Below, in pieces: positions 1-56,571 of a stretch of 64,000 nucleotides of DNA; the stretch's first letter is position 1; the number at the start of each line of letters is the position of its first letter. The position numbers and the translations under genes were made by a program. The stretch comes from a virus: the IMG/VR virus record IMGVR_UViG_2563366553_000007; one strand, given 5' to 3'. The notes under the pieces were generated by a model. That model had not been told where the DNA came from. It worked only from the letters and a program-made list of their open reading frames with translations, and ran no database searches.

Positions 1-145
1 ATTCTTGCAGTGTCATTTATTGCTCCTTTTGCTCCCATTCTCCCTAAAGTAATTATCTTTGATACTCTATCATTTCCATATTTCTCTCTAACATAATTAA
101 TTACTTCTTCTCTTCTTTCGTCTCCAATATATGACGATAGGTAAT
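1..145 (-). CDS. dnaE: DNA polymerase III alpha subunit (DnaE), exon 2, partial (continues past the window start)
   Basis: The reverse complement of 1-145 translates without stops to [49 protein letters not shown]. This matches the conserved DnaE segment following the PDxDxDF motif (E. coli: PDFDVDFCMEKRDQVIEHV...[21 protein letters not shown]). The exact exon start is +/- a few nt. Confidence 0.6.
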
Positions 146-948
146 CCTTTGAAATTATCTTCAGATTTTCCCCCGTCCCACACCGTGCGTGAGACTTTCA
201 CCTCACACGGCGTTCCCTCGTTTGAATTGTAGATATATTATGTGACTAAGTTGAATTTTATTAGTCTTACGAAAACCTGAACTATCGTAAATTTTTAAAT
301 ATAATATTTAATCTACTCAAACGACTTGAGCCTATCCCTCCATCACTTATTATCATGACTTCTTTGGTACTGTGGCTCTACTCTCACCTTGATTAATTAA
401 GGTTATAGATAGTTAATCTATCATTTCCCTTAAAACACTTCTTTGACAGTTATATCTCCATGTTCAAGGCTTTCCACGTTCCAATACTCCTATCTTTACC
501 GTATATCCTTAGGTGCTACCTAAATACCGTCATCAATCCAATTCCCTGTAAGAATTGTAGGATTTTCTTAACACAGCCCTTACTCATCCTTCTGATGATA
601 AACCAAATTTGCTTCTCTTAGCATTTCTACTAAGCTACATTCACGATAAGTCAGTCAGTAGTTCGTCCCCATTGCACATTTTGGATACTCACCATAGATA
701 TACTTCATAGACATCCGACATATCAATTACAGCTAATTAAACCTTTCCTCGACTTAACTCGTTAGGGTAATTTTTCTGCCGACTTCAACGAGCTTTACAC
801 AACTTCATAATAACTTAATCCATTGCATATCGTAATTTTAATGGCAATTCTTCAAAGCGTTACCTTATCATTTAATTGCTCAGAGTATTAGTTCTCCTAA
901 GTTTTTGTAACTTAGTGGGCAATCTTTTCAATTACCAACGTGTCACAC
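146..948 (-). mobile_element. ORF-less group II intron (about 800 nt) interrupting dnaE
   Basis: On the minus strand the segment begins GUGUG (948->944), the group II 5' consensus GUGYG. A domain V-like hairpin AACGCCGUGUGAGGUGAAAGUCUCACGCACGGUG lies at 214->181: a 34-nt stem with 2-nt bulge, a GAAA loop and a CGC catalytic-triad variant, about 35 nt before the inferred 3' splice site. Joining the flanks restores the DnaE motif PDIDV|[15 protein letters not shown]. There is no ORF of 60 aa or more on either strand inside. Boundaries are approximate. Confidence 0.6.
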
Positions 949-2380
949 CTACATCTATGTCAGGCATACTAATTCTATCTGGGTTTAAGAATCTTTCAAA
1001 TAACAAGTCATAACGAATAGGATCCATTTCTGTTATTTTCAATACATATGCAACAAGTGAGCCCACACAACTTCCTCTACCTGGTCCTATAGGAATATTA
1101 TTTTTTTTAGCAAAATTAATAAAATCCCAAACAATTAAGAAATAGTCTGGATAACCCATTTTACATATTGTTTTTACTTCAAATTCCAATCTTTCTTTAT
1201 ATTCAACTGATTCATATTTAGAACTTCCATAAAACCTTTCTTTAAAGCCTTCCTCGCAAAGTTTTTTAAAATACTCTTCATTATTTAAATTTTTTTCGTC
1301 CTCTCTTGGGAATACAGGTAATATATTATGTCCAAAATCAAAATGTAAATCACATTTATCCATAATCTCTAATGTATTAAATAAAACTTCAGGTATATCT
1401 TTATATTTTTCTTCCATATCCCCACAAGTATGTACATAATATCCATCACCTGAGAATTTAAATCTTTTAGGATTATCCATAGTTGTCTTAGTCTGGTTAC
1501 ATAAATGTGTCTCATGGACTAAAGAATCTTCTTTTTTCAAATAGTGAGCATCATCTGTGGCAACTACTTTTATATCAAGTTTCTTGGCTAATAACATTAA
1601 CTGTTTATTTATTTTATCTTCATCTTTAATATTATGTCTTTGAATTTCAATATAAAAATCATCTTTAAAAATTCCCTTTAATTTTAAAGCTATTTGTTTT
1701 GCTAATTTATTGTTGCCATCTGCTATAGCTCTTGGTATTTCTCCAGCTATACATCCAGATAAAACTATAACACCTTTGTTGTATTTTTCTAACCAACTGT
1801 ATTTTATCTGAGGACTTTTATAGAAATTATTATAGGCCATAGAACATAACTTAGATATATTTTTATAGCCAACCTCATCTTTAGCTAATAGAACTAAATG
1901 ATTTTTATTCATACTTCCATCTATACTCTCAGAATATGCCTCAAACCCAATTATAGGCTTTTTATTTTTAGATACCATTTGCTTATAAAAATTAATCGCA
2001 CCATACATTACACCATGATCTGTAATTGAACATGAATATTCTGTTTCTTTTGCTAAATCTCCTATTCTTACAATTGAATCAAGAAGAGAATACTCTGTGT
2101 GTCCATGCAACCTAATGCAAGTTATAACTTTTAATTTTTCATCAACAAACTCTCCTATAAAATTATTCCTATAATCAAATATATTATTTTTTATAAAAGT
2201 ATCCTTAACAAACTTTTCTTTTTTTAAAACAAATAGGACCTCTTTACCATTTAGTAAAGATACCTCTATCTTTCCATCATTTTCAATTAAACTTAAATAA
2301 TTTGAACTACTATTATTTTTTCCCTCCTTTAATTCACTTTGAATTTTCTCACATTGTTTTTTGCTAAGATTAACATACAT
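949..2380 (-). CDS. dnaE: DNA polymerase III alpha subunit (DnaE), exon 1, N-terminal PHP domain
   Basis: The track ORF 932..2380 contains PHP motifs [26 protein letters not shown] and GFEAYS, and ends ...MPDIDV. The last 17 nt of the track ORF (VGVTRW*) are intron read-through. An N-terminal extension of about 85 aa precedes the PHP domain. Confidence 0.75.
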
Positions 2381-4515: not shown

Positions 4516-6168
4516 TTATACACATATCTGTTCTATTACTTCTTTAACATTTTCTCTATATTCTGTGTCTCGTACTTTGTTTGCAACTCCAACAATCAAG
4601 GCTTCTTTTATGCTTTCTAAATCTTCACTCATCTTTACTGCATGTATAAATCCTCTAATGCTCATACAACTTTCATCTAAATCAACATATATACTTTTTA
4701 TAAGATCTATCAGCTTTGAGTAAACTTTATCAGCAATTAATAAATCTGACTGTTTAACACAAGGACAAGAATCTTTTAAAATTGAGTATATGCTATTATT
4801 AGATTCAAATAATATATCTACAAATCTATCAGATAAAGCTTCATTTAAATCAGAAGTACCTTCATATCCAACATTCATAGTTCCTATAACAATAAAATTT
4901 TCTTCAGCTCTAACTTGTTTGTATCCTGGCACTTCAATAGATTGTCTATGGTCGGTAATAGAATGTAGCAGGGCTGTCACTCCTGGATCAGCAAAATTTA
5001 TTTCATCTACATTTATAATTCCACCTTGTTCCATAGCTTCAAGAAGTACTTCAGGCTCAAATACTATGGTGCTCTTTGAAATTCCATTCTCGTCTACTTT
5101 TGTGTCTACGCTTTTTGACCCTAATAAGTCAAACTTATCGGTCTCTTTGCTTATAGAAATAGAGTATAGAGGTCTTTGGAATATCCAAGCCATAGTTTCT
5201 ACAAAAATATTTTTACCTGTACCTTTTTCTCCCGAACAGAGTATATGACACTTGTTTCTAATTGCAGAACAACCTATTTTTAAATTATTAGAGTTATCTT
5301 GATAATTTGGATTTTCTTTAGGTATTCTATGAGAAACATTCTTGCCATATTTTTTGTAAGTACTAAATATTTTTTGAATTAAAGCAATCTTAAAATTATT
5401 ATTTAATAAATAATCTTCTATTTCATCTAATATAGTTTTATTAAATCCTTTTTTAATTAATTTTTCTTTTATTTTTATATTTTCTTCTTTTAATGCCTCA
5501 TTAGTAACACTTTTATATTTTTCTAAATCAAAATCAAGAACTACATAAAAATCTGTTTTTTCAGTTTTATATATTTCTGCTAATCCTATGTCTATATTTG
5601 ATTTTAAAATAGTTTTTAATGCTTTAATCTCATTAACAGAAGAACATTTAGGAAAATCTTTTTCTTCTATGACTCCAGCTTTTTCTCCATTTTTGAATAG
5701 TATTATCTTTTCATTTTCCAACCCAACTTTTAAAAATATTTTTTCTCCATTTTTGAATTGATTAATAGCCTCCATCTTTTTCTTATATTCTTTTATGCTC
5801 CCTTTTACTTTTAGTATTAAATTTCTCCTAAACTCATTTTTTTTATCATCGTTTTCAGAGTCACTTTGTATCTCAACAATTAAAATTGTTTTTGTTTTAT
5901 TGGTTTTAATCTCATCATAACCAACTACTATGCCATAAAATTCATCTTTCATCTTGTTCACTATAGCATGGTTAGAAACGGTACCTTCACCCATTGTTTT
6001 TGGTTGTGCAGATATAAAGCCTATTTTTTCTTCTTTAAAAAATGCAATTATTGCATCCTCATCCATTTTATTTTTTGGATCTTTTTTAAATGTGATTTTT
6101 GTTCCTATCTCTATATAATCTAAATCCTTATAACTATGTACAACTGATACCTTTTCCATAAATAACAC
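4516..6168 (-). CDS. MoxR/CobS-like AAA+ ATPase (AAA_5 type) with a 150-aa N-terminal extension
   Basis: Walker A is SGEKGTGKN and Walker B is IINVDEINFADPGV. Sensor and arginine-finger regions (TMNVGYEGTSDLNEALSDRF) are typical of the MoxR/CobS/dynein-related subfamily. Confidence 0.75.
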   Translation of the reverse strand: MLFMEKVSVVHSYKDLDYIEIGTKITFKKDPKNKMDEDAIIAFFKEEKIGFISAQPKTMGEGTVSNHAIVNKMKDEFYGIVVGYDEIKTNKTKTILIVEIQSDSENDDKKNEFRRNLILKVKGSIKEYKKKMEAINQFKNGEKIFLKVGLENEKIILFKNGEKAGVIEEKDFPKCSSVNEIKALKTILKSNIDIGLAEIYKTEKTDFYVVLDFDLEKYKSVTNEALKEENIKIKEKLIKKGFNKTILDEIEDYLLNNNFKIALIQKIFSTYKKYGKNVSHRIPKENPNYQDNSNNLKIGCSAIRNKCHILCSGEKGTGKNIFVETMAWIFQRPLYSISISKETDKFDLLGSKSVDTKVDENGISKSTIVFEPEVLLEAMEQGGIINVDEINFADPGVTALLHSITDHRQSIEVPGYKQVRAEENFIVIGTMNVGYEGTSDLNEALSDRFVDILFESNNSIYSILKDSCPCVKQSDLLIADKVYSKLIDLIKSIYVDLDESCMSIRGFIHAVKMSEDLESIKEALIVGVANKVRDTEYRENVKEVIEQICV

Positions 6169-6229
6169 CCCTTTTTAAGATTTTAATAGTCTAAATCCTT
6201 TTTATCATGATATATTATAGAAACAGGGT

Positions 6230-6262
6230 GAGAAAATTATAATTTTCTCACCCTGTTTTTTA
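6230..6262. terminator. Stem-loop downstream of the primase gene
   Basis: The hairpin is AACAGGGTGAGAAAATTATAATTTTCTCACCCTGTT followed by TTTTTT on the + strand. Confidence 0.5.
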
Positions 6263-6266
6263 TATA

Positions 6267-7640
6267 TTATATATTTTTATATTTTTTAAGTTGTCTTAAT
6301 ATTATTTGTTCATACAATTCTTTTTTTGCTTCTTTTGGATATTTTTTTTCATCTGGCCCAAATAATGATATTAATATTTCTATATACTTATTATAATAAG
6401 TATTCATCTCATCAAATGAAATTTTATCAACCATATCTTTTTTCCCATTATCAATTAAATCATCGATACCTTTCCCAAAATCACTGTCCCAAAGGACATA
6501 GAATATTTTTTTATTTTCTATTTTTTGTAAAGCTTCTCCTAACTTCAAAGCTTGTTTGTAAACAGCAAGATTATATCCCATGTCTGCATCAAAGGCGACA
6601 TAAATATAAGGTAATTCTACCTCACTATATAATTTTTGAATATTCTTAATTACTTCTATAATATTACCCCAAGCACAAACGCCTTGAATTGATATTGCTA
6701 TGCTATTATACTCTTTTGCTATTTTCTTAGCCTTAAAATGGCCCTCAGTAATAAAAATAGTTTTTACCTTCAATTCCTCTGGATAAATAACATCTACAGA
6801 TACACCAGCAGATGTACCAAATTTATACCCTTCATTCTCTTGAGCAAAAGCAGATGAAAACCAAATATATCTACTCTCGTGGCTATTTACCACATTTTTT
6901 CTTATTTGTATTCCAATAATTTGTTTAAATTCATTTCTAATTGGAATTGCGATGCCTCCTCTTTTTATAGTAGTAAAGTCATATCGATTATTTTTCTTAT
7001 TATAAAAAAAACCTGGTATATTATTTAATGTACTTAATTTAATGTTATTTTTTTCTAAGTCAGTTAAGAAAGGTTTTAATATATATCTATTTGGGAAAGA
7101 AAAATAACCTGTATCTTCGATTTCTTTATCTGTCAGCCCTCTTTTATTTTTAAGATGTTTTATATCTTCTTCATTTAATCTATTTTTACCTAAATAATCA
7201 AAACCTTTTATAAACAAAGAATAGATTTTATTTAATGTTTCATTATCAGCTTTTTTACTTTGATGTTCAATAAGGTTTTGTTTTATGTAAGTTTTTTCAA
7301 TTTTTAAATTCTCTGATTCTGAAAGTTTTTTTGATAATATTTGCTTATATTTTTCTTCTGAGATTAACCTCTTTTCAAGTGCTATTTTAAATGCACTCTC
7401 AACATAAGTTATATTTTCAAATAAGGAAACAAATTTAATAATATCTCCTCCAGTACCACAACTAAAACATTTAAATATTTTCTTATTTTTAGAAACAGAA
7501 AAGGAACCAATTCTTTTATCATTGTGAAAAGGACATAAGCCTTTTCCATTTTTCAAATCCATTCTTGATTCAATTTCATCTATACCAACAACTTCTCTAA
7601 CTAATTCAATAATCTCTTTTATAAAATCTTTCCTTTTCAT
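6267..7640 (-). CDS. dnaG: DNA primase (DnaG-like: CHC2 zinc finger + TOPRIM)
   Basis: The zinc-finger region is CPFHNDKRIGSFSVSKNKKIFKCFSCGTGGD. TOPRIM motifs are IFITEGHFKAKK and YVAFDADMGYN. Confidence 0.8.
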   Translation of the reverse strand: MKRKDFIKEIIELVREVVGIDEIESRMDLKNGKGLCPFHNDKRIGSFSVSKNKKIFKCFSCGTGGDIIKFVSLFENITYVESAFKIALEKRLISEEKYKQILSKKLSESENLKIEKTYIKQNLIEHQSKKADNETLNKIYSLFIKGFDYLGKNRLNEEDIKHLKNKRGLTDKEIEDTGYFSFPNRYILKPFLTDLEKNNIKLSTLNNIPGFFYNKKNNRYDFTTIKRGGIAIPIRNEFKQIIGIQIRKNVVNSHESRYIWFSSAFAQENEGYKFGTSAGVSVDVIYPEELKVKTIFITEGHFKAKKIAKEYNSIAISIQGVCAWGNIIEVIKNIQKLYSEVELPYIYVAFDADMGYNLAVYKQALKLGEALQKIENKKIFYVLWDSDFGKGIDDLIDNGKKDMVDKISFDEMNTYYNKYIEILISLFGPDEKKYPKEAKKELYEQIILRQLKKYKNI

Positions 7641-30758: not shown

Positions 30759-31004
30759 AAAATAAAAGATATTTATTATACATAAATTAAAACAGATTTT
30801 AAAACATTAATTAGAGATTATGAATAATAGCTTTATTATAGCATTTGCAATATATCTAATAAAATATAAAATATATTATTTAGACTATGTTAATAATAAT
30901 TAGGTATTTTGTAGATAAATTTTATTTTTTTTATAATTAAAAAAATTATTATGTTAATAAAAAAACTTTCTTTTTGTTAAAAAAGTGGATAAAAATTTTA
31001 TCAA

Positions 31005-31066
31005 AAAAAAGACACAGGTAGTAGAAAAATTGTTTTTTTCTAAAAAACCTGTGTCTTTTTAAAAAT
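31005..31066. terminator. Large-loop hairpin between convergent genes
   Basis: AAAAGACACAGGT ... ACCTGTGTCTTTT. Confidence 0.4.
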
Positions 31067-31126
31067 TTGCATCACAAATTAGAATTAGCAATATTTTACT
31101 AATCCACATTTATGATATTATTTTAA

Positions 31127-32182
31127 TTAATAAAAACTACCAAAGGTTATTAATTTCTTTTCAATAAAATTTCTTAAAAATCCAGCTGGATTTTTAATTT
31201 TATTTATGTTTATATCTTCATTATATATAGTATTTTTAAACATATGATCTAAACCTAAATAAACTTTTCTAACTCCAAATTCTAAGCTTAAACAAGCCAA
31301 GTCATTTATAATTAAAGCTTTTTCTCCTTCCAATTTTCGTAAGTCTTCATTGGAAGGATTGTTTTGTAAAAGTAGTTTAGAATGATTATAACTATAAGAA
31401 TAATTGTTTTGCTCAAATAAATTCCTAATCTTTTCACTTACTTTAAATACAAATTTTTTATTAAATTCAGATTTAGATTCATAATTTTTTGTTTCTAAGC
31501 TATCTCCAACCATTTTAAATTTTGTGTTTTTGCTACTTAAAATATCAAAAATAAATTTATCTGATTTTTTTATATATAAAGGTAGTACATCTACTAATTT
31601 ATCTTTACTAAATCTAATTTTTTTACCCTTTGCTTTACAAGCATCTATCCATAGAAGCTTTTTTAGTTCAAGTTTTAATTCATTCACATTTTTTAAATTT
31701 ATTAAATGTACTAAGTGATTAAGTGTTAAAGTTATATAACCACTACCACCCTTTTCTTTTTTATAATGATTTTTATATTCATCTGCAATTACAATATCAA
31801 ATCTACCATAATTAGAAGATGGCGTAAAATAAGCAAGTCCTAAATAAGAAAGTGTTTTTTGGTTGTTTCTCGCAGTAACTATAGATATGTTACATAATTT
31901 AGCAATATCTTGATAAGAAATGTTTTTTCTAACAAAACAATCATTTGCAAAAGGCAAAAAATGATATAATAAATATTGTTTTATTAAAGACTTATTTGAA
32001 GAAATAATTTTTGTATAATTATTCTTTGTTAATCCTAATTCTTTTTCAAGTTTAGAAAGTCCATTATCATTTATTTTAATTACATCTATTTTCTTTTTAA
32101 AGACAGATATAATCTCTTTTAGTTTTGATTTAGAGATTCTTGCATTCGCTTTTAATTCATCAAACATATATTTATTATACAT
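31127..32182 (-). CDS. Hypothetical HTH protein, candidate replication initiator adjacent to the iteron array
   Basis: The HTH-like segment is YQDIAKLCNISIVTARNNQKTLSYLGL. The gene starts about 70 bp from the first iteron box. Confidence 0.4.
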   Translation of the reverse strand: MYNKYMFDELKANARISKSKLKEIISVFKKKIDVIKINDNGLSKLEKELGLTKNNYTKIISSNKSLIKQYLLYHFLPFANDCFVRKNISYQDIAKLCNISIVTARNNQKTLSYLGLAYFTPSSNYGRFDIVIADEYKNHYKKEKGGSGYITLTLNHLVHLINLKNVNELKLELKKLLWIDACKAKGKKIRFSKDKLVDVLPLYIKKSDKFIFDILSSKNTKFKMVGDSLETKNYESKSEFNKKFVFKVSEKIRNLFEQNNYSYSYNHSKLLLQNNPSNEDLRKLEGEKALIINDLACLSLEFGVRKVYLGLDHMFKNTIYNEDININKIKNPAGFLRNFIEKKLITFGSFY

Positions 32183-32248
32183 TTTTTACCTCCTTTCTTA
32201 TATTTTTTACATTTTATAAAACGTATTTTACAAAAGATATATGAAAAA

Positions 32249-33770
32249 GTAAAGTATGCAAATATTATTGTATTTTTGATATATCATTGAAATTTAAATA
32301 AAAAAGTAAAGTATGCAAATATTATTGTAGTTTTGATAAAAGCAAGTGTTTGCAAACAGTTTAAGCTTTTTTATTTTTTCTTTATAAATCAAAAAAAATT
32401 TTTCGACAATTTTTATAAGCAAAAAAAGCAAAAAAAAACGAAAGTATGCAAATGTTATTGTAGTTTTGAAATCTGAAAAAGAGTTAAAAAGTAAAGTATG
32501 CAAATGTTATTGTAGTTTTATAAAAGACAAAATAAAATCAGTTTAAAATTTCAATGTATTTATTGTTTTTCGACATGTCTGAGCCATTAAATATAAGTAT
32601 TTAATAAAAATCTTATCAACTTACAAAATATAATGTATTTAAAAGTATGCAAATATTATTGTAGTTTTTATATGAAGAGACATTAATATATTATTGGTAC
32701 ATAACAAAAGCTTTAATAGATATCAATTAACACTATAAAAGTATGCAAATACTATTGTAGTTTTTCAGTATAATATATATCTTAATATAAAAATATGTAA
32801 GCACTATTGTAATTTTTTACCATATATATATCTGATAATATGTAGATTCTATTGGATTTTAATTGCAATAAGATAATTAACACTATAAAAGTATGCAGAT
32901 ATTATTGTAGTTTTGGATATAATATATAATTATTAGAATAGAAGTATGTAAATATTGTTGTAATTTTTTGTTATAATACATAATTGATATTACAAAAGTA
33001 TGCAAATATTATTGTAGTTTTAATTACAATACATAATTATTAATATTAAAGTATGCAATTCACATTGTATTTTAATTATGGTAGATAATTATTAATATTA
33101 AAGTATGCAAATATTATTGTAGTTTTTAACATCTAATAATTATTAGTATAAAAGTATGCAAATATTATTGTAGTTTTTAACATCTAATAATTATTAGTAT
33201 AAGAGTATGTAGATATTATTGTAGTTTTTAACATCTAATAATTATTAGTATAAGAGTATGTAGATATTATTGTAGTTTTTAACATTCGATAATTATTAGT
33301 ATAAGAGTATGTAGATATTATTGTAGTTTTTAACATTCGATAATTATTAGTATAAGAGTATGTAGATATTATTGTAGTTTTTAGAATCTAATAATTATTA
33401 GTATAAAAGTATGCAAGTATTATTGTAGTTTTATTAGAATGTATAATTATTACTATGATAGTAAATAATTACCCATAGTATTTTTTAACATCTAATAGTT
33501 ATTAATCTAAAAGTATGCAAGTATTATTGTAGTTTTATTATATACTAATATATAAACATATGGATTATCTTATGCCTCCTGTAATAAGATGTAATTATTA
33601 TCACAAAAGTATGCAAATATTATTGTAGTTTTATTATATACTAATAAAATAGTAGTTTTTAGGGGTATCTACTTTAGGTATGCAAAAATTATTGTAGTTT
33701 ATAAATATTGAATATTTACAAATTACAATATACAATTATAACTAAGTATATTATTGTGATTTTTTTACAT
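32249..33770. repeat. Iteron-like array: about 24 direct copies of a 25-bp box (AAGTATGCAAATATTATTGTAGTTTT), including seven near-identical 53-bp tandem units at 33101-33420
   Basis: Boxes start at about 32251, 32303, 32441, 32491, 32641, 32738, 32795, 32888, 32942, 32997, 33049 and 33101, then every 53-54 bp to 33400. Degenerate copies follow to 33770. All are in one orientation and no ORF lies within the span. Confidence 0.8.
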
Positions 33771-33816
33771 ATATTATGTTAATATATAGAATATAAGATA
33801 CAAATATAAGAAAAAG

Positions 33817-35388
33817 GTGGTTGCTTTGAATAAAGAAAACGCAAGGGAAGATTTTATTTTAATAATGCATGCAATTTATGAGCAAGAAAAATTTAAATTT
33901 ATAACTCAAAAATATTTTGAAGTGCATATGATTAAATCATATGAATCAATTGATGAGATTGCTACAGTTTTTGAAGATTTTTTATCTACAACAATTTCAA
34001 GTAAGTTGGATTTACTAACAACGCCTGCTAAAGCAAAAAAATTGAGAGCTTGGGAAATTTCATCCACTTGGAGGTTAAAACAAAACTGGGTAAAGATGGC
34101 ATTAGATTCTCTGGAGAGCAATAAAGCTGAAGCAAAATTACTAAAAAAAGAATATCTAACAATAAAGGAAGAATTCTTAAAAAATAAAGGTAAAATTAAA
34201 AGTATTGATTTAGAATCTCCAGAACAATTAGTAGAAATGCGAAAAAAAACATTAAAAGAATGGGCTACAGATAGTTCTTATAATATATCAGACTTTCCAT
34301 ATCTATCTGAAATGTCAGATGCTAAGATTAATTCTGCATTTACGCACGATTTGCTTTTATGCATAACTGAGATACTTAAAGAACAATATAAATTTAATAT
34401 AAATAACATAGTATTAACTACCCCAACTAATGTAGTCCCAGGGATTTTTCTTCCTACTTTACGACCTAAACGAAATAAAAATATTGAAATAATTAAAAAT
34501 GATGATAACTCTTTTGAATCTGGTACTTATGGAGCTAAAAACCACACTGGTTCTCAATTAAATATTTCCTACAAATTTAAGATAGATGAGGAAAATAGCC
34601 AAATTGAGAGCTTTAAAATGGAATTATATAATCTTGAGACAGAAGAGAAAGCATTACCAAAACTATCTCTTGATAAAAGAGATCTTGAGATTATTATTTA
34701 CATTGAAAGACTTTTTAATTTGGATACAGCATCTTTTTATCTAAGCGATTTATTAAAACATTTAGGATTAAAATCTCGCACAAAAGCAAATTATGATAAT
34801 GTAAAAAATAGATTGTTGAAGCTTCCTTACTATTCTATCTATAGTAAATCTACAGATGCGTTTGGACAAGTTAAAGAAATGTCTTTCAACTTTTTCAGTT
34901 CAGTTGAAATTTCTCGTAATGAAGGAGAAGGAGATATCGTAAAGGGAAGAGATATAGTAAAGGTAAAAAGATCTGTTTCACCTGACATGGAACGAATGTC
35001 AACAGATATTATGTATGAAAATGAATTAAAAAAAATAAAGTTGCAACAATCTATTAATCTTGCTTACTTCCTCGAAGGAAGAAGAAATTATCTAATCAGA
35101 AGTGGTGAAGATTTACAAAATAAGAAATATAGATTTACAATTGATCATTTGAAATATGAAGTACATTTAAGTGGAAAAAATAGTCTTAAGAAAAATATGA
35201 ATTATTTAGAACTTGGTTTCAATGAGATAATGGAGAATCAATTCATCATAAAGGATTATATACGAGGAGAAGACTTCTTTGATGTCGTTTTCTATGAAAA
35301 TAACGAAAAACAAAAATGCTTATTAAATACTATTCTTGGGTCTTTGCCTGATTATATTATTAATAATATAAGAGTAGCTCAATCTTAA
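33817..35388 (+). CDS. Hypothetical protein, candidate iteron-binding initiator
   Basis: The 523-aa ORF starts about 50 bp after the last degenerate box. No known motif was recognised. Confidence 0.5.
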   Translation: MVALNKENAREDFILIMHAIYEQEKFKFITQKYFEVHMIKSYESIDEIATVFEDFLSTTISSKLDLLTTPAKAKKLRAWEISSTWRLKQNWVKMALDSLESNKAEAKLLKKEYLTIKEEFLKNKGKIKSIDLESPEQLVEMRKKTLKEWATDSSYNISDFPYLSEMSDAKINSAFTHDLLLCITEILKEQYKFNINNIVLTTPTNVVPGIFLPTLRPKRNKNIEIIKNDDNSFESGTYGAKNHTGSQLNISYKFKIDEENSQIESFKMELYNLETEEKALPKLSLDKRDLEIIIYIERLFNLDTASFYLSDLLKHLGLKSRTKANYDNVKNRLLKLPYYSIYSKSTDAFGQVKEMSFNFFSSVEISRNEGEGDIVKGRDIVKVKRSVSPDMERMSTDIMYENELKKIKLQQSINLAYFLEGRRNYLIRSGEDLQNKKYRFTIDHLKYEVHLSGKNSLKKNMNYLELGFNEIMENQFIIKDYIRGEDFFDVVFYENNEKQKCLLNTILGSLPDYIINNIRVAQS

Positions 35389-35406
35389 GATTGAGCTACT
35401 CTTATA
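35368..35406. terminator. Bidirectional terminator
   Basis: The hairpin is AGAGTAGCTCAATCTTAAGATTGAGCTACTCT. Confidence 0.5.
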
Positions 35407-35412
35407 TATCTG

Positions 35413-35934
35413 TTATTTTAAAAATCCTTCAATTAGTTCATACTGACCATTTTTATTTAAATGTATTAAAGACATTATAAAATTTTGATTATAAAATAAA
35501 AAATAAGAGTATCCAAGTAATTCCATCTGAAGAAAAGCTTCTTCCTCAGACATAGGCTTTAATTTTATTTGTTTTCTTTTTATATCCTCTTTTTTTTGCT
35601 TATTAGTAGTTTTAATAACTTTTTTAAAAGGAATATTATTAGAATCAACATTTAAATTCATGTGATATATTTTATATAATTTTCTCTTTAAACGATTTGT
35701 AATTTTTTCTAATGATGAAAAAAAATCTCCTGAAACTTCATTCATTTTTATGATTTTTTTGTTGTATTCTAATAATAATTCTATCTTATAGCTTAATTTA
35801 TTTTGTTCAACTGTAATTTTTATATAGTCATTTTCTTTTAAAAATACTTCTAAAAAATTTAGTTTTTGATGAATGGCTAATTCGATATCTTTACTTATTT
35901 CTTTGTTATGTTTTTTTATGATTTTTATATCCAT
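35413..35934 (-). CDS. hpf: Ribosome hibernation promoting factor, long form (HPF/RaiA family)
   Basis: The N-terminal RaiA-like domain is MDIKIIKKHN...ELAIHQKL...KITVE. The C-terminal dimerisation domain, EEEAFLQMELLGYSYFLFYNQ...GQYELIEG, is characteristic of Firmicute long HPF. Confidence 0.7.
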   Translation of the reverse strand: MDIKIIKKHNKEISKDIELAIHQKLNFLEVFLKENDYIKITVEQNKLSYKIELLLEYNKKIIKMNEVSGDFFSSLEKITNRLKRKLYKIYHMNLNVDSNNIPFKKVIKTTNKQKKEDIKRKQIKLKPMSEEEAFLQMELLGYSYFLFYNQNFIMSLIHLNKNGQYELIEGFLK

Positions 35935-54900: not shown

Positions 54901-56571
54901 GTGAATTATATGAATAGTAAAAAATTCGAAAACTATTTAGTAAGAATTACAGAACAAAAAGAAAGTTTAAATATTGTAGATGTTAATAAATTAGATTTAA
55001 CAAAAGAACAAGTATTTAATTTATATTTAAGTGCTGTAAAGAACAATGGTTTAGAATTGAAATATGTGGATTTTAAAAAATATGCCTTATCGGATATAGA
55101 TATTAAACAGATATGTATAGAGGCAGTTAAAAAACATGGGTATGCACTTGAGTATATAAAGTTTAATGAACTTAATTTGTCAGCTAAAGAAATAGAAGAA
55201 ATTTGTCTTGAAGCAGTAAGACAAAATGCATTTTCTCTAAAAGCTGTAGATTTTAATAAATTAAATTTATCAGATGAACAGATATATAATATATTCACTG
55301 AAGCAGTCAAACAAAATGGATATATTTTAGAAGATATAAAAAAACAGGACTATAATTTATGCCTAATAGCAGTAAGACAAAATGGATTAGCTTTACAATA
55401 TGCAAAATTTGATTCATTTTTTATTACAGAAAAGCAAAAAAATAAGATTTATATAGAAGCTATTAAACAAGATATTTCAGCTTTGCTTTTTATAAAAAAC
55501 AAAACAGAAGAAATTTATAAAGAAACAGTAAAAAATGATGGCTTAGCTTTAATATATATAAAAGAGCAAACAGAAGAACTTTGTTTATTAGCAGTAAAAC
55601 AAAATGGTTTGGCTCTTGAGTATGTAAAAGAACAGACGGAAGAAATATGTCTTGAAGCAGTAAAACAAAATGGTTTAGCTCTTGAGTATGTAAAGAAGCA
55701 GACAGAAGAAATCTGTATAGAAGCAGTAAAACAAAACGGTTTAGCTCTTGAGTATGTAAAGGAGCAGACAGAAGAAATCTGTATAGAAGCAGTAAAACAA
55801 AACGGTTTAGCTCTTGAGTATGTAAAGGAGCAGACAGAAGAAATCTGTATAGAAGCAGTAAAACAAAACGGTTTGGCTTTAAAGTATGTTAAAGAACAAA
55901 CTCATAATATATGTTTAATAGCAGTAAGACAAGATGGTAAAGCTCTTAAATATGTAAATAAGCAAACAGAAGATATATGTAAAGAAGCAGTTAAAAAAAA
56001 TGGTATGATTTTACAATATGTGGAAAATCAAACCGAAGAGATATGTTTAATAGCAGTAAGACAAGATGGATTTGCGATTAGAGATGTAAAAAAACAGACA
56101 CCTGAAATATGTTTAGAAGCAGTAAAACAAAAAGGATGGTATTTAATGTATGTAAAAGAACAAACGGAGGAGATTTGTCTTGAAGCTACTAAAAATGACA
56201 AAAGAGCTTTTCAATACGTAAAAGAGCAAACAGTAGAAGTATGTATAGAAGCAATAAAAGGAGACTTAGTCAACTTAAGTTTTATTAAAGATGATATGTT
56301 AAATGAATTAAACAAAAAAGAAAATTTGAAAAAACTTAAGTTGAAAAATAAGATAGAAAAGAAGATATTTAAAAATAGTAATGGACATGAAGAAATAAAT
56401 GCCTTTAAACTTGACCATATTTGGTATTTAGTATTTGAGTGTGATGAAATAATTAAGGTAGAAGATTTTTATAAGATGTTGGTAAATGATGAAAATATTT
56501 TTAAATATTATATCTTAAGTTCTCGAAAAGATGAGTATTTAAATTTTTTAAAATATTTGGAAAATAAATAG
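54901..56571 (+). CDS. 22-residue-repeat protein (DUF4116-like) with about 20 tandem units
   Basis: The consensus unit is E(I/L)C(L/I)EAVKQNG(L)AL(E/K)YVKEQTEE. Three units are encoded by identical 66-bp DNA repeats (about 55640-55840). Confidence 0.65.
   Translation: MNYMNSKKFENYLVRITEQKESLNIVDVNKLDLTKEQVFNLYLSAVKNNGLELKYVDFKKYALSDIDIKQICIEAVKKHGYALEYIKFNELNLSAKEIEEICLEAVRQNAFSLKAVDFNKLNLSDEQIYNIFTEAVKQNGYILEDIKKQDYNLCLIAVRQNGLALQYAKFDSFFITEKQKNKIYIEAIKQDISALLFIKNKTEEIYKETVKNDGLALIYIKEQTEELCLLAVKQNGLALEYVKEQTEEICLEAVKQNGLALEYVKKQTEEICIEAVKQNGLALEYVKEQTEEICIEAVKQNGLALEYVKEQTEEICIEAVKQNGLALKYVKEQTHNICLIAVRQDGKALKYVNKQTEDICKEAVKKNGMILQYVENQTEEICLIAVRQDGFAIRDVKKQTPEICLEAVKQKGWYLMYVKEQTEEICLEATKNDKRAFQYVKEQTVEVCIEAIKGDLVNLSFIKDDMLNELNKKENLKKLKLKNKIEKKIFKNSNGHEEINAFKLDHIWYLVFECDEIIKVEDFYKMLVNDENIFKYYILSSRKDEYLNFLKYLENK

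Follow-up and report, generated by a model that had tools for sequence, protein, structure and literature searches.

The array described here lies on the 300.9-kb plasmid of Clostridioides difficile BI1 (NC_017177.1), of which we analyzed a stretch of 64,000 nucleotides, referred to as the window. Dense direct repeats fill a 1.63-kb gap between two divergent genes, one encoding a 351-aa protein (rep) and the other a 523-aa protein. The features of the locus are the following, with positions given in window coordinates:

31127..32182, − strand: gene for the 351-aa protein, Rep-like with winged helices in tandem; candidate iteron-binding initiator (predicted fold)
32225..32253, − strand: promoter-like site for rep, TTTACT, 17 nt, TAAAAT (consensus scan)
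32251..32519, + strand: conserved core of four boxes, the proposed replicator (pattern and position-weight scans)
32391..32408, + strand: invariant motif AAAAAAAATTTTTCGACA in the spacer between boxes 2 and 3 (alignment of cores)
32566..32575, + strand: second copy of TTTTTCGACA, 47 nt past box 4 (sequence search)
32642..33099, + strand: middle, irregular part of the array (position-weight scan)
33100..33456, + strand: tandem part, seven units of 51 bp, near-identical except for the diverged seventh (TRF and unit comparison)
33510..33701, + strand: distal part, with boxes at 33510, 33606, and 33675, of which the one at 33675 is degenerate (pattern and position-weight scans)
33764..33792, + strand: putative promoter-like site ahead of the 523-aa gene, TTTACA, 17 nt, TAGAAT, 10/12 matches (consensus scan)
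33817..35388, + strand: gene for the 523-aa protein, with a helical domain at the N terminus and a RepE-like double winged helix at the C terminus (predicted fold)

A position-weight scan of the 300-kb replicon detected 21 strong boxes, scoring 14-41 bits, and one weak box (32835, 6.3 bits), rather than the approximately 24 that an earlier note on this DNA had counted. The conserved box, AAAGTATGCAAATATTATTGTAGTTTT, is 27 bp long, where 25 bp had been given, and its copies span 32251-33701 on the + strand only, the first of them 69 bp upstream of the rep start codon. That the direct repeats are densely arrayed in a single orientation was borne out by a pattern search allowing ≤3 mismatches; it recovered 19 copies, all of them + strand and within 32252-33701, where chance would give 0. 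Positions GTATG, A10, T13, and ATTGTAGTTTT of the box are retained in nearly all 21 copies. Outside the array, the position-weight scan found no boxes in the 300-kb replicon (best other score, 12.3 bits), and there were 0 copies on the − strand; the boxes are thus not the generic dispersed repeat that the earlier note had named as the finding that would speak against an origin. Like an origin, the locus combines a one-orientation cluster of direct repeats with an adjoining initiator-like gene, and the cluster is unique in the replicon.

Box spacings range from 51 to 149 bp over 1.45 kb. The earlier description of an irregular part followed by a regular one stands, with spacings of 52-149 bp in the early part and strict regularity later on, but the period is exactly 51 bp by TRF and not 53-54 bp. 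In the middle part, box starts fall at 32642, 32738, 32790, 32835 (the weak box), 32888, 32941, 32995, and 33048, with a spacing of 45-98 bp, and several of these boxes are degenerate. Copies also decay toward the gene at 33817, as had been noticed, the last box scoring 22 bits and being followed by a half-box at ~33748. With a 27-bp box and a spacing of 51-149 bp, the array departs from the iteron norm of ~17-22 bp repeats that are contiguous or helix-phased. Among the spacings, only that of the box 3-4 pair (52-54 bp) is in helical phase, and that spacing is conserved. Overall, the array divides into a four-box core that is conserved and an expansion specific to the lineage.

Unit starts in the tandem part lie at 33100, 33151, 33202, 33253, 33304, 33355, and 33406. 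Each tandem unit consists of a 27-bp box and a 24-bp spacer bearing the palindrome CTAATAATTATTAG, and an extra conserved element, ATAATTATTA, is found 8 nt upstream of the box. Seven near-identical units had been proposed, of which six hold and the seventh has diverged. Neighboring units do share private substitutions, as claimed, though the exact pairs are U1=U2 and U4=U5 rather than units 3 and 4 and units 5 and 6; U3 and U6 differ by 2-3 bases. These exactly duplicated neighbors indicate recent unequal exchange, and the tandem block is a recent expansion. In older units, the box is conserved and the flanks and spacers have diverged. The suggestion that the period would place every box on one face of the helix did not survive, since 51 bp corresponds to 4.86 helical turns, which rotates successive boxes by about −50 degrees, and the sister lineage pESS17301a has units of 76-78 bp, or 7.2-7.4 turns. 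The growth unit of the array differs in each case, being 51 bp here, a 103-bp double unit in the 90%-identical plasmid pESW1602, and 76-78 bp in pESS17301a. The downstream array is confined to the megaplasmid and pESS17301a lineages, with a different unit structure in the two, and its tandem part turns over fast while the core stays fixed.

Both flanking genes were previously unannotated ("hypothetical"), and structural models of their products match the initiators of iteron plasmids best. For the 523-aa protein, the top structural match is RepE and the fourth is RctB; for the 351-aa protein, RctB is the second-best match. Both models contain two consecutive winged-helix domains (WH1-WH2), as in RepE-, pi-, and RepA-type initiators, and the 351-aa protein has in addition a C-terminal helical domain of ~110 residues. 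Both flanking proteins are therefore predicted to have a Rep fold like that of classic plasmid replication initiators. At the sequence level, neither protein matched Rep_3 (PF01051) or any other curated Rep family in Pfam or NCBIfam, ten distant members of the 351-aa family likewise gave no curated Rep match, and profile searches against PDB sequences returned nothing for the flanking proteins. Scans with Pfam, NCBIfam, and PADLOC-independent profiles yielded just one sub-threshold DUF4780 match and PHROGs of unknown function. The 351-aa Rep family nevertheless comprises at least 367 sequence clusters, which the curated profiles miss. We dropped the idea that the 351-aa and 523-aa proteins are paralogues, because hhalign between the two families found no relationship.

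The −35 hexamer of the promoter-like site for rep overlaps box 1, which could allow autorepression of rep from this weakly predicted promoter. Across the array, the consensus scan gave a lower number of promoter-like sites than shuffled sequence did, which led us to reject reading the locus as an array of promoters.

Rep gene, boxes, and partner gene together form a module that we found in ~19 related loci, with protein identity down to 35%; the 523-aa gene always accompanies the boxes and the 351-aa gene. These loci belong to megaplasmids, relatives of toxin plasmids, phiCD211-type phage-plasmids, C. mangenotii, and metagenomes. A scan of the genome collection, which relies on near-exact peptide patterns, found 4 loci. 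Box number ranges from 4-6 in some relatives up to 21-24 elsewhere, and six different box sequences occur among the ~19 loci, differing between lineages in step with protein divergence. Such parallel divergence, together with the fixed core spacing described below, is what would be expected if a binding protein and its sites co-evolve under geometric constraint. In CD160, co-resident relatives (L013 and L014) have different box types, and ES-S-0173-01 probably likewise hosts differing box types, its phage CP067352 being typed only as phiCD211-like. That relatives sharing a host have different box types is as iteron incompatibility predicts. The plasmid pESS10701b carries a decayed copy of the array alongside a pseudogenised rep gene and IS insertions, a picture of constraint that has been lost. 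In pCd5_2 (L012), a Rep homologue is present, yet boxes and partner gene were not detected within 6 kb of it. A conventional RepA_N gene lies 6.5 kb from the module in pESS17301a, so the module need not be the sole replicon there.

The four core boxes lie at 32251-32277, 32308-32334, 32441-32467, and 32493-32519, with a spacing of 57/133/52 bp. This 2+2 geometry, at 57-59/133-144/52-54 bp, recurs with different box sequences in most intact loci, namely pESW1602, pESS17301a, CD160 contigs 37 and 29, phiCD211, C. mangenotii, and 9 further viral contigs; a looser form of the core is seen in two metagenome loci. The invariant motif between boxes 2 and 3, an A-tract/T-tract followed by CGACA (A8T5CGACA), is kept as AAAATTTT(T/C)CGACA in 7/7 aligned cores, where it holds 14 of the 41 invariant columns. 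It shows no co-variation with the boxes. Whatever the box type, the non-box motif AAAATTTTTCGACA stays invariant, and within the replicon it is present only at the array locus. The sequence TTTTCGACA occurs just twice in 300 kb, both times within the core, and the second copy of TTTTTCGACA is similarly placed in pESW1602 and phiCD211 and in reverse orientation in pESS17301a. The invariant motif may be the site of a conserved, perhaps host, factor, or the point at which melting starts. No exact DnaA box (consensus TTWTNCACA [PMC7561715]) is found at the array locus; TTTTCGACA has one mismatch to that consensus, but at one mismatch the criterion is so permissive here, with 4.6 matches per kb, that it is uninformative. 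A nearest-neighbor stability scan of the core, in DNA of ~20% GC, found no exceptionally unstable AT-rich window that would mark an unwinding element.

We also considered the plasmid as a whole. NC_017177.1 has neither a RepA_N-type initiator gene nor an annotated replication initiator, and it encodes its own DnaE, primase, and ligase. A ParM/StbA gene and a small downstream gene are located at positions 232487-234223 of the record, ~35 kb from the array, which falls at 269-270 kb of NC_017177.1, and a large ParA-like gene sits among pilus genes at 224-226 kb. Cumulative GC skew over the whole plasmid is V-shaped. The switch in skew that the earlier note had proposed as a check was found in so far as the array lies inside the minimum, but that minimum is flat over 25 kb and its numerical low point is 17 kb away, so that the switch is not pinpointed. 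The curve of pESS17301a is monotonic and becomes informative after detrending, when its minimum falls at 70 kb, adjoining the module at 72.6-76.4 kb; in phiCD211, the skew tracks phage gene orientation and has its minimum 16-21 kb from the module. GC skew is thus compatible with an origin here without being decisive, as it locates nothing precisely.

Taken together, the Rep-like folds of the flanking proteins, the conserved module of ~19 loci, the uniqueness of the boxes in the replicon, and the lack of any other annotated initiator support the earlier proposal of initiator-binding iterons at a plasmid origin. We consider it probable that the array is the iteron region, comprising origin and copy control, of the basic replicon of the BI1 plasmid, and that it works as follows. 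The 351-aa protein would be a pi/RepE-like double winged-helix initiator whose monomers bind the 27-bp boxes. The replicator would consist of the four boxes nearest the 351-aa gene and the A8T5CGACA motif between boxes 2 and 3; here the DNA would be bent, opened, and passed to the replication machinery, much of which is plasmid-encoded. Initiator bound to box 1 could also repress rep, since box 1 overlaps the likely rep promoter. The other 17 boxes, including the six-unit 51-bp block, would provide lineage-specific extra initiator sites that act by titration and by "handcuff" pairing of sister origins, and the expanded array would in this way keep a very large plasmid at low copy and cause incompatibility, like incA of P1 and incC of F. 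The 523-aa protein may be a second DNA-binding partner with a Rep fold, either a co-initiator or a regulator, for which the boxes, the ATAATTATTA element of the tandem units, and the invariant motif are candidate sites. Which protein binds which site, the firing of the locus as an origin, and the control of copy number by the expansion are parts of this scheme that we infer.

Other readings would give the array a different function. It, or at least its tandem part, might be a partition centromere at which a flanking winged-helix adaptor couples the plasmid to a segregation motor, on the model of TubR on tubC, ParR on parC, or EBNA1 on the family of repeats of EBV oriP. Centromeres are typically long one-directional repeat arrays under small DNA-binding proteins, and TubR is itself of winged-helix type. 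The plasmid does have a ParM/StbA gene, upstream of which no convincing repeat cluster was seen that could serve as its own centromere, and the tandem part is dispensable in relatives with just 4-6 boxes, which implies some add-on role. However, no ParA, ParM, or TubZ gene adjoins the array, ParM being ~35 kb off, and the flanking proteins match initiators over two winged-helix domains, unlike the single-domain TubR or the ribbon-helix-helix ParR. With an invariant motif outside its boxes, the conserved 2+2 core also looks more like a replicator than like a centromere. We therefore regard a centromere as less likely than initiator iterons, and as improbable in its own right. We would give similarly little credence to the view that the boxes are mere transcriptional operators of winged-helix regulators, acting on their own divergent promoters or on neighboring genes, with replication starting elsewhere.

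The two remaining alternatives carry less weight still. One takes the array for an AT-rich minisatellite with no function, which arose in a long intergenic stretch through replication slippage or through unequal crossing-over. This would fit the recent unequal exchange to which U1=U2 and U4=U5 point, as well as the differences in array length and unit structure even between 90%-identical plasmids. It is nonetheless very unlikely, given that box positions are kept in nearly all 21 copies while older flanks and spacers have diverged, that the core geometry persists under different box sequences at loci down to 35% protein identity, and that the decayed copy in pESS10701b, next to its pseudogenised rep, shows what lost constraint looks like. 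A CRISPR-like or repeated-RNA locus is suggested by a superficial repeat-spacer layout on a plasmid with type I-B cas genes, but these genes are ~190 kb from the array, the regular part has identical spacers, the boxes vary, and the spacing elsewhere is irregular, unlike a CRISPR array. The box shows no potential to form a hairpin (z = −0.27), there is no excess of promoter-like sites, and an Rfam scan gave no relevant match, the weak ones lying only at the terminator after the 523-aa gene. The earlier note had already argued against CRISPR, and we agree that this reading is hardly credible.

Returning to the iteron replicon, a bolder version can be put forward, though only tentatively and as a joint reading that we think unlikely to hold in full. 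The two unrelated, co-inherited Rep-fold proteins and the two-part locus might together form a two-initiator iteron replicon, with a four-iteron replicator of fixed geometry, an invariant site at which a conserved third factor acts, and an iteron array able to expand. In that case, the element read by the 523-aa protein would differ from that read by the 351-aa protein; it might be, for example, ATAATTATTA, which only the tandem units contain, or else the invariant motif. The array itself would serve both as a copy-number brake and as an element for pairing or segregation, like the family of repeats of EBV oriP. Such a replicon would be common to the conjugative-type megaplasmids, toxin plasmids, and large phage-plasmids of Clostridioides, and would represent an incompatibility family not yet typed, in which a change of box sequence re-sets specificity.

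For large C. difficile elements, MOB-suite typing returns no replicon, and no origin is described in the literature we searched. The elements without an assigned replicon include the 300-kb megaplasmids, the 130-kb phiCD211-type phage-plasmids, and ~140-kb plasmids carrying tcdB and cdtAB, such as pHSJD-312. If the module is the replicon, the Rep gene and box type would provide a marker for typing these elements and for predicting their coexistence. The module would also be a candidate low-copy, large-capacity replicon for clostridial genetics, and boxes supplied in trans could displace toxin plasmids. To plasmid biology, the locus adds an obligatory pair of Rep-fold proteins and a Rep family overlooked by curated profiles. 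As iteron number rises from 4-6 to 21-24 with the replicator fixed, the role of surplus iterons becomes directly testable.

Several known systems can be compared with the locus. Within the species, pCD6 was reportedly described at the outset as having a RepA and a block of tandem direct repeats, which indicates that iteron replicons function in C. difficile. No other C. difficile replicon is described as fully characterised; pCD6 is a small plasmid of 6.8 kb, and its RepA resembles pIP404 Rep (PMC12291638). A tblastn search with the 351-aa protein recovered no pCD6-type plasmid. The Rep_3-type gamma origin of R6K, bound by pi, has seven contiguous 22-bp iterons, whereas the BI1 plasmid has 21 spaced 27-bp boxes, and the 351-aa protein differs from pi in lacking Pfam Rep_3 similarity and in its extra ~110-residue C-terminal helical domain.

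Similar in organization are P1 RepA with incC and incA and F RepE with ori2 and incC, which likewise combine a small replicator set with a larger set for copy control and incompatibility, just as the BI1 locus has a conserved core set, the proposed replicator, and a separable second set. These, too, are large low-copy replicons; P1, like phiCD211, is a phage-plasmid, and the 523-aa protein matches RepE best. In P1 and F, however, the two sets flank rep and contain 4-9 copies each, whereas here both lie upstream of rep and the second has 17 copies with a lineage-dependent unit structure, and P1 and F have no constant second Rep-fold protein unrelated to the first. RctB and ori2 of Vibrio cholerae chromosome 2 offer an enlarged Rep with extra domains, iterons together with separate regulatory sites, and a very large replicon. 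There, one protein serves two kinds of site, where we find two proteins, and the RctB iterons are 11-12-mers dependent on Dam methylation; we identified no counterpart of the 39-mer or crtS. As centromere analogues, TubR-tubC and ParR-parC share direct-repeat arrays coated by a small DNA-binding protein, but their ~11-12 bp repeats lie directly upstream of a motor operon, in contrast to an array with no adjacent motor and with neighbors of dual-domain initiator fold. Finally, EBV oriP pairs 4 EBNA1 sites in a dyad-symmetry element with a family of repeats of ~20 sites that tethers the episome to chromosomes; its proteins, host, and mechanism are unrelated, and its likeness to a four-box core beside an expanded array is one of functional analogy only.

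Window positions 31000-35500 are 100% identical to 267867-272367 of NC_017177.1, a circular 300,869-bp 'plasmid unnamed' of Clostridioides difficile BI1 in which record position 236868 corresponds to window position 1. Because 'pCDBI1' denotes a 45-48-kb plasmid in some papers, we refer to this replicon as the BI1 megaplasmid. Its DNA has a G+C content of ~20-25%, and its gene set, which includes its own ligase, ribonucleotide reductases, ClpX and FtsH, is unusually autonomous for a plasmid. Also present outside the window are IscB and TnpB genes, type I-B cas genes arranged as an operon (75.9-83.7 kb) and, at 196.8-199.3 kb, a cGAS/DncV-like nucleotidyltransferase that forms a CBASS-like pair with a SAVED protein. 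For DNA polymerase III alpha, the annotation gives two genes (window 1-2380; record 234581-239247), an OB-fold protein (record 234581-237031) and 'dnaE' (237799-239247), ~770 bp apart, which points to a frameshift, a split gene or some element lying in between. A 66/132-bp tandem repeat (~11.5 copies, 75-77% matches) lies within coding sequence at window 55502-56259; DUF4116-domain genes that contain repeats of this kind number in the dozens and occupy most of record 97-188 kb, nearly all on one strand.

Repeats are evident by eye in the gap between two divergent genes, both 'hypothetical' in RefSeq:

31127-32182, minus strand: rep, encoding a 351-aa Rep-like protein, the candidate initiator
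32251-33701, plus strand: array of 27-bp direct boxes, the first four (32251-32519, nearest rep) forming the core
33817-35388, plus strand: partner gene, encoding a 523-aa second Rep-fold protein

The repeats, put at about 24 in the earlier note, are real, with corrected numbers. The 26-nt box proposed there has 19 copies at ≤3 mismatches, all on the plus strand at 32252-33701, where chance predicts none, and a weight-matrix scan yielded 21 boxes (14-41 bits) plus one weak copy at 32835. Across the whole plasmid, the same scan found no box on the opposite strand and a top score outside the array of 12.3 bits, ruling out a generic dispersed repeat. Start-to-start steps are 57, 133, 52, 149, 96, 52, (45, 53), 53, 54, 53 and 52 bp in the first part, followed by six of exactly 51 bp and then 104, 96 and 69 bp. 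The regular spacing had been read as 53-54 bp, which was wrong, as Tandem Repeats Finder also returned a period of 51. The regular block comprises six near-identical 51-bp units, each a 27-bp box and a 24-bp spacer holding the palindrome CTAATAATTATTAG. Identical neighbors (U1=U2 and U4=U5, with U3 and U6 differing by 2-3 bases) confirm recent unequal exchange as earlier proposed, though not through the pairs then named (3 with 4, 5 with 6). A ATAATTATTA-type element also lies 5′ of the older, diverged boxes and is absent before the first four. A minus-strand 69-aa ORF with a TTG start (32294-32503) inside the core is probably spurious, given the AT-rich DNA.

Neither flanking protein matched Pfam or NCBIfam, their PHROGs have no known function, and no sequence relationship between the two was found. 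A profile search returned 367 cluster representatives for the 351-aa family, which no curated family covers; its distant members gave only sub-threshold HTH matches. The 392-aa homologues of phiCD211 type carry a ~40-residue Cys-rich insertion (CNSC ... FCxxC; alignment columns 42-90), possibly a zinc ribbon, which the BI1, pESW1602 and pESS17301a proteins lack; the corresponding residues 29-62 are disordered in the BI1 model. The partner gene has an annotated GTG start that overlaps the gene's ribosome-binding site (AAAGGTGG, 33813-33820). TTG at 33826, 5 nt past that site, looks the likelier start; this would give a 520-aa protein with its N-terminus aligned with the pESS17301a homologue. 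A strong inverted repeat at 31000-31062 (AAAAAAAAGACACAGGT ... ACCTGTGTCTTTTTAAAAA), probably a bidirectional terminator, separates rep from the type IV coupling-protein gene that converges on it.

The three-part module of rep, boxes and partner gene is widespread beyond BI1.

Box types and core spacing across modules
BI1 megaplasmid: box AAAGTATGCAAATATTATTGTAGTTTT; core 57/133/52 bp; 21 boxes, 51-bp tandem units
pESW1602 (306 kb): box as BI1; core 58/133/52 bp; 90% identical, ~24 boxes, 103-bp double units
pESS17301a, CD160 contig 37: box AAAGGTTCGCAGATTCTATTGTCTTTTT; core 58/134/53 bp; 12 boxes, 76-78-bp units
phiCD211, CD160 contig 29, nine more viral contigs: box TAAGTACGGAGCTGATACGGTCATTT; core 58/144/53 bp; 5-6 boxes
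C. mangenotii: box ATACCCCGGAGGTTTTACCATTATTT; core 59/134/53 bp; 5 boxes
Metagenome locus L024: box AAAAGTACGGAACTTTCGTTGCCAT; spacing 58/141 bp; 6 boxes, without the +53 partner
Metagenome locus L023: 38-nt box; core 80/199/54 bp; 4 boxes

On similarity, pHSJD-312 would belong with pESS17301a. The spacing of the first four boxes is conserved across most box types, and alignment of seven cores revealed one invariant non-box element, AAAATTTT(T/C)CGACA, in the box 2-box 3 spacer; TTTTCGACA has only two copies in the 300-kb plasmid, each inside the core. The boxes invariably lie upstream of the rep transcription unit in constant relative orientation. All intact modules have a homologous ~500-aa partner gene of variable orientation, divergent in the megaplasmid lineage and L024 and inverted, with its 3′ end facing the boxes, in phiCD211-type loci, C. 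mangenotii and L023. CD160 holds two modules of differing box types (L013, L014), and ES-S-0173-01 carries pESS17301a plus a phiCD211-like phage with a Rep homologue. Short elements after box 1 (CATTGAAAT) and box 2 (GT.TTT[T/G]CAA), at window 32284-32296 and 32333-32357, are apparently mutually inverted and recur across box types (loci L003, L010, L014, L024 and L023), so the sites at boxes 1 and 2 may be composite and longer than the box itself; their phiCD211 counterparts are repeats of 50 nt with 92% identity.

Three plasmids have features of their own. The pESS10701b module (L011, 6100-11500) is decayed: rep is frameshifted and broken into three frames, the array is cut by IS elements and has only 5 boxes left, followed by IS3- and IS256-family transposases, and the partner gene is missing. 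This plasmid presumably replicates by other means. The 62-kb pCd5_2 (L012) departs from all other loci, encoding a 399-aa Rep-like homologue (5499-6698, ~40-45% identity) with neither box cluster nor partner gene detected within 6 kb. The 136-kb pESS17301a (L018) has a conventional RepA_N-type 'replication initiator protein A' gene (32820-34004) 6.5 kb from its module, and so may have two replicons.

The suggestion that box spacing sets every box on one helical face fails. By arithmetic, 51 bp is 4.86 turns, which offsets successive boxes by ~-50 degrees, so that they spiral round the helix; the 76-78-bp units of the sister lineage make 7.2-7.4 turns. Conserved spacing resides in the core, at 57-59 bp (~5.5 turns) for boxes 1-2 and 52-54 bp (~5 turns) for boxes 3-4.

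Cumulative GC skew of the BI1 megaplasmid formed a clean V, with a maximum at 71 kb and a flat minimum at ~249-275 kb that contains the array (269.1-270.6 kb of the record); the numerical minimum is 17 kb from the array, a difference of only ~1% of amplitude. In pESS17301a, skew was monotonic because almost all genes lie on one strand, with a slope break at 70-75 kb adjoining the module. The phiCD211 minimum (130 kb), 16-21 kb from the module, tracks a gene-orientation switch. Skew in these three replicons is thus compatible with an origin, not decisive. The BI1 plasmid has neither a RepA_N homologue nor an annotated initiator, and no clear repeat cluster was found upstream of the distant ParM gene. 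A duplex-stability scan gave no outstanding unwinding element, and no exact DnaA box was found. TTTTCGACA fits the C. difficile oriC rule (TTWTNCACA with one mismatch; PMC7561715), but that rule matches 4.6 times per kb here.

The most economical reading of the array and its flanking genes is an iteron replicon. The analysis shows anatomy, predicted folds and a comparative pattern, and it supports the origin-iteron interpretation of the earlier note; every functional step is inferred. The 351-aa protein would be the initiator that binds the boxes, and the four-box core, invariant motif included, would be the replicator. The core is probably also the operator of rep, as a promoter-like site overlapping box 1 weakly suggests. 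The other 17 boxes would be a lineage-specific expansion that, on the model of P1 incA and F incC, may titrate the initiator and pair origins, giving low copy number and incompatibility.

Full-text searches turned up no paper that describes an origin, iterons or initiator for these elements, and one survey states that no C. difficile plasmid other than pCD6 is fully characterised (PMC12291638). The module could help to type and manipulate megaplasmids, toxin plasmids and phage-plasmids of C. difficile. Relative to well-known iteron systems, the new features are an unannotated Rep family paired with an obligatory second Rep-fold protein, for which the classic systems offer no equivalent, a 2+2 core that stays fixed, and an expandable iteron array of unusual size.
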